Part shown: in pieces, positions 1 to 7,767 of the stretch
How the letters are laid out: every line of letters starts with the position of its first letter
Position numbering within the stretch: the first letter of the stretch is position 1
IMG/VR virus record: IMGVR_UViG_2526164619_000005
Coordinates: 1 to 12,767 of that record
DNA: 12,767 bases
DNA from: a virus
Lineage: Duplodnaviria > Heunggongvirae > Uroviricota > Caudoviricetes
Strand: one strand, 5' to 3'
Position numbers and translations under genes: made by a program
Notes under the pieces: model-generated
The model's database searches: none
What the model saw: the letters and a program-made list of their open reading frames with translations, nothing else
What the model was told of the DNA's origin: nothing

Positions 1-244
1 AATATATCTCGCTCAAGGCGAGCTTCATTTAACGCCTTACGCAGTTGCAGAATTTCAGATTCCAGTTCAGCCACCGTGCGGGAACCAGGAGTACCGAGCC
101 CTTTTCTGGCGGCGGTAACCCATTGTCCTAAAGTGCCTTCAGGAAGGGATAATCGGGAAGCGCCTTCACTGATCGAAAGTTGATTTTCAAGAACCGTTCT
201 GACAGCTTCGGCTTTGAACTCTTTAGAGTAACGTTGGTTTTTTC
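1..244 (-). mobile_element. Partial IS3-family (IS600-like) copy: orfA codons 3-86 on the minus strand, cut by the window edge and by the IS66-family element at 244/245
   Basis: Reverse complement of 1-244 matches 8219-8462 (orfA of the complete copy) base for base as far as I could compare by eye; the match stops exactly where GTAAGCG begins at 245. Confidence 0.85.
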
Positions 245-330
245 GTAAGCGTAAACTGACCGCCGTATGTAGCCATTAAGCCTGTATTGGTAACGTAGGT
301 GCCCACCTTTTCAACTAGTGGACACCTGTT

Positions 331-751
331 ATGGAACAGAAAGCATTATCTGCAGAACCCCGCAGATCATTTTCAAATGAGTTTAAACTTCAAATGGTTA
401 AACTGGCTTCACAACCAGGAGCCTCTGTTGCCCGTATTGCCCGGGGAACACGATATCAATGATAACCTGCTGTTCAAATGGCTCAGGCTCTGGCAGAACA
501 AAGGGCGCATATCGCGGCGTCTTCCGGTAACAACCTCTTCTGACACTGGCGTTGAATTATTACCTGTGGAGATAACGCCGGATGAGCCGAAAGAACCGGT
601 GGCTGCTCTTACTCCGTCTTTATCTACTCAGACTACAGTTAGTGCCAGCTCCTGCAAGGTGGAGTTCCGTCACGGTAACATGACGCTGGAAAATCCTTCA
701 CCAGAGCTGCTCACAGTGTTGATCCGTGAACTGACCGGGAGGGGACGATGA
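331..751 (+). pseudogene. IS66-family orfA (accessory helix-turn-helix protein), frameshifted
   Basis: ATG at 331 opens a reading frame giving MEQKALSAEPRRSFSNEFKLQMVKLASQPGASVARIAR, which hits a stop at 460-462. The protein continues in the +1 frame (EHDINDNLLFKWLRLWQNKGRISRR... to 751). The switch sits at a run of four G at 443-446, consistent with one extra G. Confidence 0.7.
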
Positions 752-1098
752 TCTCACTCCCGTCAGGCACCCGCATCTGGCTCGTTGCTGGGATAACCGA
801 TATGCGTAAGTCTTTCAACGGGCTGGGTGAACAGGTACAGCATGTGCTGAATGATAATCCCTTCTCCGGTCACCTGTTCATCTTCCGTGGCCGACGGGGT
901 GACATGATTAAAATCCTGTGGGCTGATGCTGATGGTCTGTGCCTGTTCACCAGACGCCTGGAGGAAGGCCAGTTTATCTGGCCTGCTGTGCGTGACGGCA
1001 AGGTATCCATTACCCGCTCGCAACTGGCAATGCTCCTCGATAAGCTGGACTGGCGTCAGCCAAAAACATCCCGCCTTAACGCACTGACAATGTTGTAA
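748..1098 (+). CDS. IS66-family orfB (TnpB-like accessory protein), apparently intact, 116 aa
   Basis: ORF begins MISLPSGTRIWLVAGITDMRKSFNGLGEQV...; its start overlaps the orfA stop (ATGA at 748-751), the usual IS66 arrangement. Confidence 0.8.
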   Translation: MISLPSGTRIWLVAGITDMRKSFNGLGEQVQHVLNDNPFSGHLFIFRGRRGDMIKILWADADGLCLFTRRLEEGQFIWPAVRDGKVSITRSQLAMLLDKLDWRQPKTSRLNALTML

Positions 1099-1128
1099 AA
1101 ATGTCATGGCCGGATTATAAAAACGGCC

Positions 1129-2721
1129 ATGAATCAAAAATACCTCATTCGCATTGCAGAACTGGAATGCCAGCTCCGTCAGAAAGACCAGCAACTGAGT
1201 CTGGTTGAAGAGACGGAGGCCTTCCTGCGCTCTGCACTGGCCCGCGCCGAAGAAAAGATCGAAGAAGATGAACGGGAAATAGAACATCTGCGGGCTCAGA
1301 TAGAAAAACTGCGCCGGATGCTGTTCGGTACCCGTTCTGAAAAACTGCGTCGTGAAGTTGAACAGGCTGAGGCCCTGCTGAAACAAAGCGAACAGGACAG
1401 TGATCGTTACAGTGGGCGGGAAGACGATCCGCAGGTTCCCCGCCAGTTGCGACAGTCTCGTCATCGTCGCCCGTTACCGGAGCATCTGCCCCGCGAAATA
1501 AATCGCCTGGAGCCAGAAGAAAGCTGTTGCCCGGAGTGTGGCGGTGAGCTGGATTATCTGGGGGAAGTCAGCGCAGAACAACTGGAACTGGTGAGCAGCG
1601 CTCTGAAAGTGATCCGCACAGAACGGGTAAAAAAAGCCTGTCCAAAATGTGACTGCATCGTTGAAGCACCGGCACCATCCCGTCCGATAGAGCGTGGTAT
1701 CGCGGGCCCGGGGTTACTTGCCCGCGTGTTAACGGGAAAATACTGCGAACACCTGCCACTGTATCGTCAGAGTGAAATTTTTTGCCCGTCAGGGTGTCGA
1801 ACTGAGCCGTGCATTACTCTCCAACTGGGTTGACGCGTGCTGCCAGTTAATGACGCCGCTGAATGATGCTCTGTACCGTTATGTGATGAACAGCCGCAAA
1901 GTTCACACTGATGACACACCAGTAAAAGTGCTGGCACCGGGCAGGAAGAAGGCGAAAACAGGATATATCTGGACGTATGTCCGGGATGACAGGAATGCCG
2001 GTTCGCCAGAGCCTCCGGCGGTCTGGTTCGCCTACTCACCGGACCATCAGGGTAACATCCGGAGCAGCACCTTAGTCCCTTCCGGGGTATCCTGCAGGCA
2101 GATGCGTTTAATGGTTACGATCGGCTGTTCAGTGCCGAACGAGAAGGCGGCGCGTTGACGGAAGCAGGATGCTGGGCTCATGCGCGGCGCAAAGTCCACG
2201 ATGTATATATCAGTACCAAAAGCGCGACAGCGGAAGAAGCCCTGAAACTAATCGGTGAGCTGTACGCCATCGAGCACGAAATACGCGGGTTGCCGGTGTC
2301 TGAACGCCTGGCGGTCAGGCAAATGCAGAGTAAACTGCTACTGACTTCTCTGTATAAGCTGATGCAGGAGAAAGAACACACGTTATCGAAAAAATGCCGT
2401 CTGAGAGATGCGTTCCGGTATATCAGGAAGCACTGGGTTGCGTTGTGCAACTTCAGTGATGATGGTCTGGCTGAGGCGGATAATAATGCCGCGGAAAGAG
2501 CGCGTCGTGCAGTCTGTCTCGGAAAGAAAAACTTTATGTTCTTCGGCAGCGATCACGGTGGAGAGCGTGGTGCGCTACTGTACGGGCTGATCGGCACCTG
2601 CCGACTGAACGGTATCGATCCGGAAGCGTATCTGCGCTATATCCTGAGCGTACTGCCGGAATGGCCTTCCAACCGTGTTGACGAACTCCTGCCATGGAAC
2701 GTAGCACTCACCAATAAATAA
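1129..2721 (+). pseudogene. IS66-family transposase (orfC/TnpC) broken into three ORFs by two single-base indels
   Basis: Three pieces (1129-1833, 1772-2158, 2155-2721) together read as one transposase (zinc-finger-like CPECGG...CPKCD motif, then ...YIWTYVRDD..., ...AGCWAHARRK...). The frame changes +1 at a run of six T (1778-1783) and returns at a two-A site (2054-2055, ggtaacatcc). Confidence 0.75.
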
Positions 2722-2809
2722 GCGTCAATACGGTGCTCCGTTGACGCTGATATGACTTTCCGTGTCAAACCGGAATCTCTAATTTTGACGATTTTCTTTT
2801 TAGGTTTAA

Positions 2810-2996
2810 TTCCCTGAGGGCGACGTAGCAGTAAATCCGACGGTGAATCACGCTGATATTCGCGGGTTGGATACCGCATTACAGAGGTCCGTCATATGAG
2901 CCTGCCACTTTCTTACGTCGCGAATCAGCTTTGTTCCGCCGTCGCCAAGCGCTAACGTGGGTTACTCTTGTACCGGGCTACGTCGCCTTCAGGGAA
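2810..2996. repeat. Pair of 20-bp inverted repeats (2810-2829 ttccctgagggcgacgtagc; 2977-2996 gctacgtcgccttcagggaa) flanking a 147-bp spacer
   Basis: The arms are reverse complements with one mismatch. They lie between the IS66 transposase stop and the IS110-family transposase stop; meaning unknown. Confidence 0.5.
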
Positions 2997-3013
2997 CTGG
3001 TTATTCTCATTTT

Positions 3014-4141
3014 TTATTTGTGACATTGTGGTTGTTGTGCGACAGACATTGCTATTCGGCCCATATCCCAGATAAAACCCGCCAGCTCACGTGCAACAGC
3101 AACAATTGTAATATTGACATTCTTTCCTTTGGCCTGAAGTTTTCGATACCTCTTACAAAGCCTGAGTTGAGCATCCCATGCTCTGTCAATGACGGGGCGG
3201 GGTAAATTTTCCTGCCTTTTTTGTATTGCCGGACTGATGCGTGCCGGATGACGGTAACTCCACGCTGCCTCGACCAATAGCTTTCTGGCATAGCTGTTTC
3301 CGGCTTTGGTAATGCTGCCCTGATGTCTGCTTCCACCCGATGAATATTCTGATGGCGTGATACCAAACCATGACATCAGTTGTCGTGGATGTTCAAAACG
3401 GGTCAGATCACCCAGTTCAGAAATTAATCCAACCGCAGTAATAAACTGAATCCCTCGCATGGCTTGCAGCGCCTCTACTACCGGATACAGCCTCCATTCG
3501 GTAACGGCCTCCTTCAGGGCGGATTCCAGCCGTTCACATTGTGCCTGCCGGTCTTCTATTGTACGACGGTGTTCGTCAAAAGCTAATTGTCGCCAGGGAC
3601 TTTCGAATGAGTATTTGCTGAGCCAGCGTCGGTGTGCAGGGCCCCAATCTGCTCGCCCGACATAATGGACCCCATGAACCAGAAGAAACGATTTCAGACG
3701 TTGCCTTGCATGCCGTAAATCATCGCGGGCAGATGCCCATGCCCGGGCCAAATCCCGGAATGCCTCATCTTCAATGCCGGGTACGTAGACAGCAGAAAGA
3801 TCTCCTGCACGCAGTGAACGCACAAGTCTGATGGCATCACGGCGATCGGTTTTAACCCGCTCCCCCGGTTTTTTCGGGATAAGTGAGGGGGCGCAGACCA
3901 TGCAGTCAAAACCGGATTTCACCAGCCGACGATAAAGTCCATAACCACAGGGCCACGCTTCATAAACGATACTGACCTGCGATGACTTTGACCTGAGACG
4001 TTTACAAAGATTCTGAATATCAGTAGGTGATGTGCCAATTTTACCCATCAGTTCAACAGGTTCTGAATTGATAGCATAAGCGACAGTAATCGATTCTTTG
4101 TGAACATCTAACCCGACGTACAATGTGTTATTGTTGTTCAT
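3014..4141 (-). CDS. IS110-family transposase (DEDD type), 375 aa, apparently intact
   Basis: Begins MNNNNTLYVGLDVHKESITVAYA... (IS110 N-terminal motif) and has the family's C-terminal region (...GIQFITAVGLISELGDLTRFEHPRQLMSWFGITPSEYSSGG...). GGAGG ribosome-binding site upstream of the ATG at 4139-4141. The six-frame ORF extends to 4189 but the first ATG with a ribosome-binding site is used here. Element boundaries not determined. Confidence 0.85.
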   Translation of the reverse strand: MNNNNTLYVGLDVHKESITVAYAINSEPVELMGKIGTSPTDIQNLCKRLRSKSSQVSIVYEAWPCGYGLYRRLVKSGFDCMVCAPSLIPKKPGERVKTDRRDAIRLVRSLRAGDLSAVYVPGIEDEAFRDLARAWASARDDLRHARQRLKSFLLVHGVHYVGRADWGPAHRRWLSKYSFESPWRQLAFDEHRRTIEDRQAQCERLESALKEAVTEWRLYPVVEALQAMRGIQFITAVGLISELGDLTRFEHPRQLMSWFGITPSEYSSGGSRHQGSITKAGNSYARKLLVEAAWSYRHPARISPAIQKRQENLPRPVIDRAWDAQLRLCKRYRKLQAKGKNVNITIVAVARELAGFIWDMGRIAMSVAQQPQCHK

Positions 4142-4356
4142 GCTGGCCTCCGTGGTGGAAATACCGGGGTGTAGCAACAGCTCACCCATGCGGCTCTGAC
4201 AACGATGTTAACCCGCGTTAAATATCCCACGTTGGCCAGCATCTGTCTCACGGAAAGTCATACTGCCTTACTATCGTATTGATTGATCTGCATCAAATTA
4301 ACGTAAAAGCAACTTCAGATAATACAAATCAGCAACACTGAATATGGGGAAACATT

Positions 4357-4557
4357 ATGTCATCAAAGAACAGAACCCGCAGAACAACAACCCGCAACAT
4401 CCGATTTCCAAACCCGATGATTGAACAAATTAACATCGCTCTTGATCTGAAAGGTTCAGGAAACTTTTCAGCGTGGGTTATTGAAGCCTGCAGGAGAAGG
4501 CTGGCAACAGATGCAACGCATCTGCGCCCGGCCAGCATGAAAAATAACGAGAAATGA
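4357..4557 (+). CDS. Small YlcI-like protein (DUF3950-type, likely ribbon-helix-helix DNA binding), 66 aa
   Basis: MSSKNRTRRTTTRNIRFPNPMIEQINIALDLKGSGNFSAWVIEACRRRL... resembles, from memory, prophage DLP12 YlcI. GGGGA ribosome-binding site before the ATG. Confidence 0.55.
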   Translation: MSSKNRTRRTTTRNIRFPNPMIEQINIALDLKGSGNFSAWVIEACRRRLATDATHLRPASMKNNEK

Positions 4558-4688
4558 ACGTTCGGTTACAGGAGCAGGTACCCACTGTCCTCCAACAATA
4601 TTTCATCTTCATATCCGACGGAACAAGACTTACCCTGCCGGGATGTACAGAATAACAACAGAGTGATAATTAATTTCTGATGAAATAA

Positions 4689-5015
4689 TCAGGGTGCAGA
4701 AGGACTAAAGATAAACGTTTTCTTCACGCCTTTACACGGCCTGTCCTTCTCAAATCGCCATTTTGCCATCGCCTTTACAACCTGCTCATCAAACAAATGG
4801 TGCGGCTCTGAACGGATAAACTCAATTCGAGTGACAGTACCATCAGCACCAATATCAAACTTCACATCAACCCGTCCCTTTATATAATTTGCCGCTGCAT
4901 AGGCCGGATATTGTGGTAATGCCTTAACCAACTGTCGGGGCATATCTGTTTTATGTTGCGTACAGCCCATAACCAGAGAAGACAACAAAATAATTAACGG
5001 AAGGTTTCTTTTCAT
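4689..5015 (-). CDS. Lipoprotein with a TonB C-terminal-like domain, about 108 aa
   Basis: N-terminus MKRNLPLIILLSSLVMGC has signal-peptide character with a lipobox-like VMGC. The body (PQYPAYAAANYIKGRVDVKFDIGADGTVTRIEFIRSEPHHLFDEQVVKAMAKWRFE) aligns motif by motif with the E. coli TonB C-terminal domain as I recall it. Start could be ATG 5021 or 5015; the ORF track's 5030 start is a GTG. Confidence 0.7.
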   Translation of the reverse strand: MKRNLPLIILLSSLVMGCTQHKTDMPRQLVKALPQYPAYAAANYIKGRVDVKFDIGADGTVTRIEFIRSEPHHLFDEQVVKAMAKWRFEKDRPCKGVKKTFIFSPSAP

Positions 5016-5035
5016 TTTCATTCCCGGCACAGATA

Positions 5036-5078
5036 AGAATAAGTCTTATTCTAACAATGCCACCCTGTCGGTCATCAA
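5036..5078 (-). promoter_or_regulatory. Putative sigma70-type promoter plus perfect palindrome (AGAATAAG-T-CTTATTCT, 5036-5052) upstream of the lipoprotein gene
   Basis: On the minus strand: TTGATG (5073-5078), then TAGAAT (5048-5053) with a 19-nt spacer, longer than optimal. The 8-bp-arm palindrome overlaps the -10 element, as an operator would. Confidence 0.3.
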
Positions 5079-5359
5079 TCCTCTGCTTAATGGCAACGAC
5101 AATTATCCGACTTAAATCACAAATCAGACACATGACATAACAGAGCTTGCGAGGTAACACATCGTCCGGTTTCTTCCACCATCGCACCGGACCAGCGACC
5201 ATGAGGGGACAACGCCGCGCTCCGTTAACGCGGTAAACCCCGGTGTGTATCGTTTTTGATTATCCCCGCACACTCGCGCAGAGGAGTCTCCCGGTCGGGC
5301 TGCGGTCTCTGTTAATGCGGGGATACGGCGACAATACCGCGCATGGTTAATAAGGTCGC

Positions 5360-5583
5360 TCAACACACTGGCTGTAATGCAGCGGATACCATGCGGCATT
5401 TAGCGGCATTCATCGTACACTCAACGGTTAGCTCTTCATTCGTGGCATTCACCTGAAAGGTCCGGGAGTGTAATTGCGTACATTTACCACTGAACGAACC
5501 TTCAACAAGAACACGACCACGCTGCAAAATACGGAACGGAATTGTTCCCTGAAAAGGCTTTACGGTTACCAGTAATTTCTTCA
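5360..5583 (-). CDS. Hypothetical 74-aa protein downstream of Rz
   Basis: ATG at 5581-5583 preceded by a GGAGA ribosome-binding site; MKKLLVTVKPFQGTIPFRILQRGRVLVEGSFSGKCTQLHSRTF.... No family recognised. Confidence 0.4.
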
Positions 5584-5607
5584 TGCATTCTCCGGATAAC
5601 AAAAATA

Positions 5608-6081
5608 CTAGTTAATACACTGAGTGCGGATATATTCCTGCGCCCCTTCCAGTTGCTTCTGCATTGTCATCAACCGCTCTCTGAGGGTGAAATAATCCCG
5701 TTCAGCGGTGTCTGCCAGTCGGGGGCCGGTTGCATTATCCATTCCGGAGGTGCCGGTGGCTTCACGCACGGTACCGGAGCAGGTGGCGTTGATCCGCAGG
5801 CGCTTACGACCAGCGGCAACATCAGCACGCAGAGTTTCATTTTCAGCTCTCGCATCGGCTAATTCCCTTGAGTATCTGGCATCAAGCGCAGCAACATCAC
5901 GCTGGCGCTGCTGCATGTCAGTAATGGTTGCGTTTGCCAGCTCCAGCTCTCTGGCTTTTTTATCGCGCTGCGCTTTGTAGGTGATGGCGTTATCACGGTA
6001 ATGGTCTGTTGCCAGCCACAGCGCACCACAGACCACCAGCAGAATAACGGTAAACGCGGAAAGCATTCGGTTTATGTTCAC
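5608..6081 (-). CDS. Rz: Rz inner-membrane spanin (i-spanin), lambda-like
   Basis: ...[55 protein letters not shown]...[27 protein letters not shown] matches lambda Rz closely from memory. Start is either GTG 6079-6081 or ATG 6064-6066. Confidence 0.85.
5670..5840 (-). CDS. Rz1: Rz1 outer-membrane lipoprotein spanin (o-spanin), embedded in Rz in the +1 frame
   Basis: [56 protein letters not shown]: lipobox, proline-rich, same architecture as lambda Rz1. Confidence 0.8.
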
Positions 6082-6209
6082 CCCAGCAGCCCCGACGAAG
6101 ACAACATCATCCAGGCCATGGAAAGAAAAAGAGCAACCAGCATTAGTGAAAATGAAATGCCGACAATTACACAGAGGATCTTCGCCAGCGTTATGAGTTT
6201 GTCTGACAT
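6078..6209 (-). CDS. 43-aa hydrophobic single-helix membrane peptide
   Basis: [49 protein letters not shown] ribosome-binding site 8 nt upstream; its TGA stop overlaps the GTG start of Rz (GTGA). Confidence 0.45.
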
Positions 6210-6223
6210 GCTTAATCCTCCCT

Positions 6224-6406
6224 TCACGATTTCAACGCAATGACCAGTTTTGCCAGCCCATACAGCATCGGGGACACAGCAACACCGACCGCCACCCACT
6301 TAATGGCAAAAGCCAGTGCTCTGCTGATGTCATCAGTTACAGGCGCTTTCAGTTCAAGGCCGTTTTTCATGGTCAACCTCAACAGAATTCGTTTATACTT
6401 CGCCAT
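6224..6406 (-). CDS. 61-aa small protein with a C-terminal hydrophobic helix
   Basis: [66 protein letters not shown] ribosome-binding site upstream; stop is 14 nt before the 43-aa ORF. Confidence 0.45.
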
Positions 6407-6432
6407 GTTCTCCCTTGCCTTACTCAAGGTCA

Positions 6433-6467
6433 GAAACACAAAACCCCGCTTGGTGCCAACAAACGGG
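6433..6467 (-). terminator. Rho-independent-type terminator hairpin (minus strand), between endolysin and the small ORFs
   Basis: Minus-strand RNA: 8-bp stem CCCGUUUG/CAAGCGGG (one G-U pair), loop UUGGCAC, then GUUUUGUGUUUC. The plus strand also shows a hairpin followed by TTTTTT (6468-6473). Confidence 0.55.
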
Positions 6468-6604
6468 TTTTTTACTTTTATTCACTTACGTTTCGCCAGT
6501 TCGCAGGATTTCGTGTTATCCGTCCGCGTGCTCATGTCTTATTTTTCAGCAAAATATTCTGCTTATCTGTCGATGTCCCAGCACGCCAGCGCACTTTCCT
6601 GGTC

Positions 6605-7096
6605 TCACCGGGATACCTGACCGTAGCAATTATTTGAGCGGATACGGCAGTCTCTGCCACCGTCCTTAATCCACCAGCGAATCGCTTCGCATGCTCCCCT
6701 GCGGTCACCAGCATTAATCCGTCTGTAAAACGTCGACGGGAAACACTTACCGGGGCCAATGTTATAGGGACAAAATGACGCGATACCCGCTTTCTGGGGT
6801 TCGGTCAGCGGCACTTTAATATTGCGCTCCACCCATGCCAGCGCCTTATCACGCTCAATGGCGTTGACCTGGTCGCATTTTTCCTTCGACAACTTCATGC
6901 CCGGGACGACAGGTTTACTATCCACCAGGATGGCACCGCGGCAGATGGTCCAGATACCCGCGCCATCACGGTATGCCGTGGTGTGGTTACCTTCCTTTTC
7001 ATCCAGAAACTGGTCGAGGATTTCAGGCGCAGGCGCACCTGCGGCAATCAGCGCCAGAACGGCAGCCGACAGGCCGTATTTGATTTTGGTGTTCAT
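6605..7096 (-). CDS. Phage endolysin (lysozyme) of the signal-anchor-release type, RrrD/P21-like
   Basis: N-terminal hydrophobic anchor (MNTKIKYGLSAAVLALIAAGAPAPE) followed by a lysozyme-like body (...EGNHTTAYRDGAGIWTICRG...). Stop is TGA at 6605-6607 (see findings). Confidence 0.85.
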   Translation of the reverse strand: MNTKIKYGLSAAVLALIAAGAPAPEILDQFLDEKEGNHTTAYRDGAGIWTICRGAILVDSKPVVPGMKLSKEKCDQVNAIERDKALAWVERNIKVPLTEPQKAGIASFCPYNIGPGKCFPSTFYRRINAGDRRGACEAIRWWIKDGGRDCRIRSNNCYGQVSR

Positions 7097-7138
7097 GGAT
7101 ATTTATCAGGGTTTATCGATTTCAAATCCCTGGATATG

Positions 7139-7471
7139 TTAAGTCTTCAGAGAACCAGTAATTATTCCCGGTAGTTTTCCTCTGTAGGTTATCAACACAT
7201 CCTGCGCCTCTAAAATTACGGGGCGCTTTTCCGGCAACGGACCATCCCCTTCACATAACCCGGCAGCAACATCCATGAAAAACTGCTTCGCCTGCTTTTT
7301 CGCCTCAGCTTCGTAAAACTCCAGCGTGGCATCTTCAGTACGGTCAAGACTAATCGCCACATCTGGCAACAACAGTGACGGACACCCACCAATTTCCAGT
7401 GCCACAGTAACAGTAATCTTATTCGGGTAATTATTTATCCCTTTAACAACCAGTTCGTATTTTTTCTTCAT
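7139..7471 (-). CDS. Hypothetical 110-aa protein between holin and endolysin (possibly YdfR/DUF1327-like by position)
   Basis: ATG 7469-7471 with GGGGAGAG ribosome-binding site, 4 nt after the holin stop. MKKKYELVVKGINNYPNKITVTVALEIGGCPSLLLPD.... Family assignment is by synteny memory only. Confidence 0.55.
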   Translation of the reverse strand: MKKKYELVVKGINNYPNKITVTVALEIGGCPSLLLPDVAISLDRTEDATLEFYEAEAKKQAKQFFMDVAAGLCEGDGPLPEKRPVILEAQDVLITYRGKLPGIITGSLKT

Positions 7472-7475
7472 CGCT

Positions 7476-7691
7476 TTACTCTCCCCGCGCCGCCTTACGA
7501 CGGTCCTCTCTGATTTTGAAATACAGGTTAGTCAGATATGTCAGCAGCCCAAACAACAGACTCCCCAGCACGCCTATTGCCGCCCACTGAGACGGGGAAA
7601 CCCTGTCCAGCAACTGCAGGAACCAGTAGCCCGTTCCCACCGCAGATGTGGTGTATGACACACCTGTTGTGATTTTTTCCATCTGGTACAT
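7476..7691 (-). CDS. Class II holin (S21-like pinholin) with dual-start motif MYQM
   Basis: [71 protein letters not shown]: S21/EssD-like. Two in-frame ATGs (7689-7691 and 7680-7682) would give 71- and 68-aa forms. Confidence 0.85.
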
Positions 7692-7767
7692 ACCCCGTCT
7701 CCCGCAATCCGGAAGCTCACAACAATATAAAGACCACCGGCACACACCGATGGTCCCTTGCGCATGC

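Follow-up and report, generated by a model that had tools for sequence, protein, structure and literature searches.

A YdfR-family (DUF1327) gene behind a P21-type pinholin gene: a conserved 72-residue core with a variable tail

The DNA analyzed here (the window) is a stretch of 12,767 nucleotides from a tailed phage (Caudoviricetes; IMG/VR record IMGVR_UViG_2526164619_000005, positions 1 to 12,767), and its lysis genes lie on the minus strand. The first of them, at 7476..7691, has 71 codons and encodes a P21-type class II holin (pinholin), S (PF04971, E 1.9e-32; phrog_9876, holin), with the Met1/Met4 dual-start motif. It is followed by an open reading frame (ORF) of 110 codons plus TAA at 7139..7471 and then, after a 42-nt spacer (7097..7138), by the 163-codon gene of a SAR-type lysozyme, endolysin R, at 6605..7096 (PF00959, E 4e-23), whose N-terminus is hydrophobic and SAR-like. 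The cassette ends with the gene of the i-spanin Rz (5608..6081; PF03245, E 7e-50), in which the gene of the o-spanin Rz1 is embedded (5670-5855; PF06085, E 1.5e-19). Our subject is the 110-codon ORF, which is intact from its ATG at 7471-7469 to its TAA at 7141-7139. An initial annotation of the window, made from its letters alone, had placed a 110-residue gene at exactly these coordinates between the holin and the endolysin, leaving its strand unstated.

The surroundings of the cassette showed several further features. A 13-bp terminator-like stem-loop (7729-7758, minus) lies immediately upstream of the holin start, between S and a DUF826 gene (7768-8020, minus; E 1.6e-43) that in many Stx phages likewise directly precedes the holin; the stem-loop may be a terminator needing Q antitermination, or may control holin translation. 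The program's ORF call for the DUF826 gene (142 residues, start at 8196) is too long, as only residues 62-136 are matched; an internal Met (MSEITSL…) is the probable start of the gene. An IS600 element (IS3 family, orfA/orfB; ~8212-9368, plus strand), 99% identical to copies in E. coli genomes, has inserted between the DUF826 gene and a NanS-p-like esterase gene (9393-10781, minus). Beyond the latter, 11004-11519 (minus) holds tRNA-Met(CAT), tRNA-Arg(TCG), and tRNA-Arg(TCT), then a match to the STnc100 sRNA (139 bits). The order of tRNAs, toxin slot, nanS-p, and S is that of Stx-converting phages, with no stx genes in the slot here. The 520 bp between the endolysin and Rz (6082-6604, minus) hold two overlapping small ORFs (6078-6299 and 6224-6439) without a family match, at a site where BP-4795 and POCJ13 have a gene for an antirepressor (ant). 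An IS110-family transposase gene (3014-4189) lies beyond Rz and a split DNA methylase gene at 11560-12430, and these, together with IS600, suggest that the surrounding prophage is decaying and possibly of Shigella type. Relative to the 177-codon R of BP-4795, the usual length of R in related loci, codon 164 (near 6605-6607) has changed from CGT to TGA, which leaves 163 residues; the remaining 13 codons are readable past the stop in the window.

Between the holin stop codon and the start of the ORF lie exactly 4 nt, as the initial annotation had it. The junction (7472..7486, minus) reads GGGGAGAG-TAA-AGCG-ATG, so that the last holin codons form the Shine-Dalgarno (SD) sequence of the downstream gene. 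That ribosome-binding site had been called strong. An SD is indeed present, with a predicted duplex of -8.5 kcal/mol with the 3′ end of 16S rRNA, but it is better described as good than as exceptional, because this value falls between the 1st and 5th percentiles (-9.5 and -7.0 kcal/mol; mean -2.8) of the background over all window positions. The arrangement GGAGAG-TAA-NNNN-ATG was found in every copy of the gene behind a P21-type holin, its spacer varying in sequence and constant in length, and this recurrence supports well, from sequence, the earlier proposal of translational coupling to the holin. The endolysin ATG, on the other side of the gene, has no SD (duplex of +0.6 kcal/mol against -8.5), and its SD-free leader, CCTGATAAATATCC (window 7097-7138), is conserved in other loci as well (L001, L002, and L097). 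Predicted RNA folding at the holin-ydfR and ydfR-R junctions was no better than that of shuffled sequences (z of -0.36 and, for the 42-nt spacer, -0.03), and a CAGGG…CCCTG repeat in the spacer was rejected as a coupling device on the same grounds. No minus-strand promoter-like site was predicted within 6400-8300, and Rfam gave no match in or near the gene.

We are virtually certain that the ORF encodes a genuine member of the YdfR (DUF1327) family behind a P21-type pinholin. A search with the DUF1327 model (PF07041), which had been proposed as a check, matched residues 1-100 of the protein with 148.2 bits (E 8.1e-44) against a gathering cut-off of 25 bits, and phrog_406 matched with an E of 1.5e-61. 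The best match in an E. coli genome is 99.7% identical and is named “YdfR family protein” by NCBI. The Pfam match, this name, and the gene order of the Qin prophage (below) show that the identity, which the initial annotation proposed only tentatively with reference to Qin, was correct. Nor is this a chance reading frame, given the 148 bits, a ratio of non-synonymous to synonymous change (dN/dS) of 0.23-0.44 in the N-terminal domain, and the occurrence of the gene at the same site in ~100 phage records. Its five PHROG matches, which include PHROGs 2091 and 1085, are all annotated “unknown function” and none is lysis-annotated, and no NCBIfam model matches the protein.

The gene is thus no new kind of element; it belongs to an already known and widespread family of unknown function. 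Matches were present in 3159 of 5426 complete E. coli genomes (58%), at up to 8 places per genome, which places ydfR among the commonest uncharacterized prophage genes of E. coli. As a protein family it is very narrow: at E <= 0.001, an exhaustive profile search of 1.84 billion representative proteins found no more than 90 clusters. Its distant members have 72-76 residues, and their alignment with the window protein is confined to residues 1-72.

Structure prediction, also called for by the initial annotation, divided the protein at the same place. The AlphaFold2 model, which used an alignment of 41 sequences, gave a core of three strands and a helix, β1(5-14)-β2(18-27)-β3(37-43)-helix(50-73), with pLDDT of 75-94. 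The conserved core therefore comprises codons 1-72 (7256..7471, minus), as delimited by the model, the stand-alone homologues, and dN/dS. The C-terminal tail, EGDGPLPEKRPVILEAQDVLITYRGKLPGIITGSLKT, comprises codons 73-110 (7142..7255, minus). Residues 74-110 had pLDDT of 30-60 both in this model and in an earlier one with a shallower alignment (~46-61 by ten-residue block) and no secondary structure, and are predicted to be disordered. Within the core, Y53-E54 at the start of the helix are invariant across the family, and the other conserved positions (Y5, V9, V21, and a D/E-R/K-x-E-G turn) are present. The window protein has D47 where most members have G, a residue that it shares with 17 IMG/VR loci. 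The spacing of the conserved residues fits a helix that packs against a sheet, suggesting that they are mostly scaffold and that few surface positions are conserved. A BFVD structure search returned nothing below an E of 0.01, no PDB sequence matched the family profile, and no clear structural match to the dsRBD fold (α1-β1-β2-β3-α2 topology) was obtained; among BFVD, PDB, Pfam, PHROG, and NCBIfam we found no fold or sequence relative of known function. With a pI of 5.5 the protein is acidic; it has no signal peptide and, in agreement with the initial annotation, no transmembrane segment (highest 19-residue Kyte-Doolittle mean of 1.38).

The two parts may also differ in how they evolve. Between diverged alleles, dN/dS in the N-terminal domain is 0.23-0.44 with synonymous sites near saturation, a sequence signature of clear purifying selection at the protein level. 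For the tail, pairwise dN/dS among E. coli alleles is 0.56-1.1 at low divergence (pS 0.09-0.16), so that the similarity among tails probably reflects mainly recent shared ancestry. These values speak against strong constraint as the cause of tail conservation; the polymorphism ratio (0.62 in the tail against 0.52 in the domain) does not clearly separate the two parts and is not decisive. A mosaic boundary lies near codon 70. When the window was compared with four other cassettes, DNA identity was 78-87% in the 3′ half of the holin gene and mostly 70-98% in the endolysin gene, with a divergent island of ~28-35% identity around codons 22-42, the β2-β3 region.

What follows the domain is diverse. 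In Evi the protein consists of 72 residues with no tail, in Qin and mEp460 the tail is of unrelated sequence, and the 110-residue form of the window is the common 114-residue form minus 20 nt between CTGAAGACT repeats. Long forms of 176-329 residues, such as gp05 of Stx2 phage 86 with its 268 residues, occur in other phages. In the long forms (L098:2501-3307, which is gp05; L056; L091-L096) the DUF1327 domain and tail are followed by a coiled coil and then by a C-terminal domain of ~150 residues (phrog_1085/36381/26186); this extension has no Pfam match, and its PHROGs are all of unknown function. One protein, P0152, has the coiled coil before the tail without a DUF1327 domain, which indicates that the modules of the long forms have been shuffled.

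Among the known relatives is YdfR of the E. coli K-12 Qin prophage (b1555, P76160). It belongs to the same Pfam family and has the same N-terminal β3-α domain, and the Qin order, essQ (holin), 4 nt, ydfR, rrrQ (lysozyme), rzpQ/rzoQ, is that of the window. The K-12 protein is 47% identical to the window protein over residues 1-74 only, and the C-terminal 30-37 residues of the two are unrelated. Where the window has its 42-nt spacer, Qin has an overlap (ATGA) of the ydfR stop with the endolysin start. Much closer in sequence is ORF47 of the Stx1 phage BP-4795, 96.4% identical as a protein and in the same place after S, as are an unannotated ORF of H-19B and the gene in Stx1a and Stx2c converting phages. 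The BP-4795/H-19B group shares both the junction and the downstream endolysin leader with the window. Copies of this type have 114 residues (…SLKTPPLA), whereas the window protein, after the 20-nt loss, ends …SLKT; it further differs by D17N and G47D, both common to the 17 IMG/VR loci, and by Y30C, which is unique.

Homologues in other lysis cassettes, on which the initial annotation had made its reading depend, were found at the same site in all seven regions opened (Qin, BP-4795, mEp460, Evi, PhiR55_1, PhiR42_1, and Stx2 phage 86), and those in H-19B, BP-4795, mEp460, Evi, PhiR55_1, and Stx2 phage 86 belong to plaque-forming or inducible phages. The gene is far from universal among such cassettes. 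A translated search of a phage collection found DUF1327 in 101 records and a P21-type holin in 434, the former being absent from ~3/4 of the records with the same holin type. The carriers include H-19B, BP-4795, Stx2 phage 86, mEp460, Evi, PhiR55_1, and most Stx1a/Stx2c converting phages. Among Stx2a-converting records, DUF1327 occurs in 2 and the holin in 124, and the 933W-like Stx2a phages as a group have the P21-type pinholin cassette without an extra gene. Shigella phage POCJ13 shares with the window a SAR-type lysozyme, Rz/Rz1, and a holin of 100% identity, but has no gene between S and R. Because the gene is absent from POCJ13 and nearly all Stx2a-converting records, we conclude that it is dispensable for pinholin-type lysis. 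In POCJ13 it is R itself that starts 4 nt after the holin stop, so the window ydfR occupies the holin-coupled start that R uses elsewhere.

The position between holin and lysozyme, typical as it is, is not the only one. By exact-protein look-ups, distant homologues of 72-94 residues (from Sodalis ligni and metagenomic prophages) were found in lambda-like tail clusters, not in lysis cassettes, either before gpL or between gpI and gpJ. These tail-cluster copies share a conserved leader of their own, AGCCGAAAGGCAGGA. Genes with 30-45% protein identity (L005:2965-3000, L006/L007, L010:3965-4000, and L012:1060-1093) have the same leader, AGCCGAAAGG(C/T)(A/G)GGA, which could form a GCC-GAAA-GGC tetraloop hairpin beside the ribosome-binding site. 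Some of these leaders come directly after a terminator-like hairpin and T-run, resembling the signature of a mobile gene cassette, and the neighbors include HicB-like, ORF6N, and Arc-like cargo genes. A third arrangement occurs in Salmonella-type prophages, where the gene lies between a PF16080 holin and the lysozyme, ~120 nt from that holin. A P21-type holin has left its last ~15 codons (…KEDKRKAARGE-stop) directly upstream of these copies (L103-L105:3380-3500), ending …GGAGAGTAG-TACA-ATG; this relic indicates that the gene, when it moved, took the 3′ end of its original holin with it. The coupling junction was, then, inherited with the gene as a block, which makes it a weaker argument that the gene is functionally tied to each holin. 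A gap of 230-450 nt, in which an antisense ORF often lies, separates the ORF from the endolysin in Evi, Stx2 phage 86, and the Salmonella-type loci; in PhiR42_1, as in Qin, stop and start overlap.

A literature search returned a single paper that mentions DUF1327 and a single functional study of YdfR. Residues 1-72 of K-12 YdfR were recovered three times in a two-hybrid screen with RNase G (Rng, the RNase E paralogue) as bait, and follow-up assays indicated a preferential interaction with RNase E 1-597 (PMC13232886). Rne 1-598 co-purified with Strep-YdfR, accompanied by DNase-resistant nucleic acid; few transcripts changed upon overexpression of YdfR, and the authors did not assign it a function (PMC13232886). 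The contact, reported for the K-12 protein only, is with the catalytic N-terminal half of RNase E (PMC13232886). Elsewhere the gene is mentioned incidentally, as giving a 3-fold higher streptomycin MIC upon overexpression and as the label of a probe set in an in vitro σS run-off array.

The RNase E-binding region of K-12 YdfR, residues 1-72, coincides with the conserved domain, and the two genomic settings of the family share only their late-gene location. For these reasons the explanation that we favor, tentatively, is that YdfR is a cytoplasmic, late-expressed binding module, with RNase E or RNA as candidate partners, and not a core lysis protein. Its RNase E/RNA component, extrapolated by analogy from a homologue of 47% identity, is somewhat doubtful. 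Under this explanation ribosomes that reach the end of the pinholin gene on the late transcript of the phage would go on to translate ydfR, giving a small, soluble, acidic protein whose expression and cytoplasmic location we infer from the gene and its product. The working part would be the 72-residue domain of three strands and a helix, and the 37-residue tail a variable and probably disordered appendage. The gene would be an optional passenger of the lysis cassette, with no part in the hole-forming, wall-degrading, or spanin machinery, and its product would bind a cytoplasmic host target late in infection, for which the catalytic N-terminal half of RNase E and RNA are the candidates.

Alternatively, the gene may be a moron, i.e., mobile cargo (such as a host-defense inhibitor, a superinfection exclusion gene, or a host fitness gene) that occupies permissive slots of the late operon and has a fast-evolving target. 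The narrowness of the family (90 representative clusters in 1.84 billion proteins), its extreme mosaicism, in which the β2-β3 segment is hypervariable and its flanks are conserved, and the few conserved surface residues are all in keeping with this. So is its occurrence in at least two unrelated slots that differ in the 5′ junction inherited with the gene (GGAGAG-TAA-N4 for lysis cassettes and AGCCGAAAGGCAGGA in tail clusters, there sometimes after the terminator-like hairpin), with cargo genes of HicB-like, ORF6N, and Arc-like types among the tail-cluster neighbors. Against it, a promoter and terminator of its own flanking the gene were not found for the window copy, which has no promoter-like site within 6400-8300 and starts 4 nt after the holin stop; such a copy would be silent in a repressed prophage, unlike classical morons. 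Membership in a defense system was rejected, as PADLOC gave no match for ydfR, its long forms, or the neighboring DUF826 gene, and the K-12 data point to RNase E/RNA and not to a defense system (PMC13232886). We consider the moron explanation unlikely, while part of the family, namely the tail-cluster copies that follow a terminator-like hairpin and T-run, may qualify as morons.

Another explanation would be a role in lysis timing. YdfR would in that case be synthesized at a constant ratio to the holin and act in the cytoplasm as a partner of the pinholin/SAR-endolysin pair; it would bind the cytoplasmic C-terminal tail of the holin or keep the SAR endolysin export-competent, such that triggering is delayed or sharpened. 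Cytoplasmic or accessory antiholins of this sort are T4 RIII and P1 LydB, and S107 and S21-71 are dual-start antiholins. YdfR resembles them in being a small protein that would be co-expressed with the holin encoded beside it. The stop-start coupling would give holin-proportional synthesis, the gene is present in functional phages, and it keeps its place between holin and endolysin in prophages of both Escherichia and Salmonella, behind holins of the unrelated families PF04971 and PF16080. The C-terminal tail of the holin (…RKAARGE) is moreover identical in cassettes with very different YdfR alleles. Yet position in the cassette does not by itself make YdfR a lysis protein. Unlike the dual-start antiholins it is a separate ORF after the holin stop and not an N-terminally extended holin; it has no hydrophobic segment or signal peptide to suggest a membrane or periplasmic sensor domain, and no relationship to a lysis-annotated family or PHROG. 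About three quarters of the phage records with the same holin, including the one with a 100% identical holin, do without it, and homologues of the conserved domain sit in tail-gene clusters. In the Salmonella-type loci the gene is ~120 nt from the real holin, and the junction there is the relic inherited in a block. On balance a timing regulator is, like the moron explanation, unlikely.

It is also conceivable that translation of the ORF matters and its product does not. As a relay acting in cis, the ORF would push the endolysin to a start without an SD and, by termination and reinitiation, set a lower or delayed ratio of endolysin to holin. Such a relay would fit the start of the endolysin 4 nt after the holin stop in cassettes without ydfR, the difference between the two start sites (+0.6 against -8.5 kcal/mol), the ATGA overlaps in Qin and PhiR42_1, and the great variability of the 3′ part of the ORF in sequence and length. 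We regard it as very unlikely, however, in that the N-terminal domain is under purifying selection as a protein, the gene is free-standing in tail clusters, and the 42-nt spacer gives no RNA structure signal. In Evi, Stx2 phage 86, and the Salmonella-type loci the relay is impossible, because of the gap of 230-450 nt, often with an antisense ORF, before the endolysin. That the window ydfR is merely an unexpressed, functionless remnant in a defective prophage, as the IS600 insertion upstream in the late operon, the nonsense codon at position 164 of the endolysin, the split methylase and downstream IS110-family transposase, and the otherwise unseen Y30C might suggest, is extremely unlikely for an intact ORF that is 96-99% identical to copies in viable phages and retains its start, its SD, and all family-invariant residues, and would in any case concern the state of one copy and not what the gene is.

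Returning to the binding-module explanation, phages are known to encode modulators of RNase E, namely T7 gp0.7, phiKZ Dip, and T4 Srd. If the contact between YdfR and RNase E has a function, YdfR could be analogous to these, as a phage protein that would act on host RNA decay. Searches of the PDB detected nothing similar to YdfR in sequence or fold. A more far-reaching version of the explanation is that DUF1327 proteins are phage ligands of a new class, with structured RNA or the catalytic half of RNase E as their target, and are encoded by a self-contained late-operon cassette that also rewires the coupling of holin and endolysin. We consider this version quite improbable. If it were true, a cassette with its own start junction would enter the holin/endolysin junction or the tail genes, and a single insertion would change both the fate of the late mRNA and the ratio of holin to endolysin.

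What our analysis adds to the known DUF1327 family is the 72-residue core, the variable tail predicted to be disordered, the optional presence of the gene, its takeover of the holin-coupled start, and the homologues in tail clusters. The value of these data lies in a cleaner description of a known DUF, with two genomic settings and a coupled start taken over from the endolysin. The description may also matter for Stx phages, in which the late region that contains the lysis cassette also contains, upstream of it, the toxin genes, and in which toxin release has been linked to phage lysis. Because of this shared location and link, an effect of YdfR on RNase E, or on when or how fully lysis occurs, would, if there is one, have a bearing on the release of Shiga toxin.
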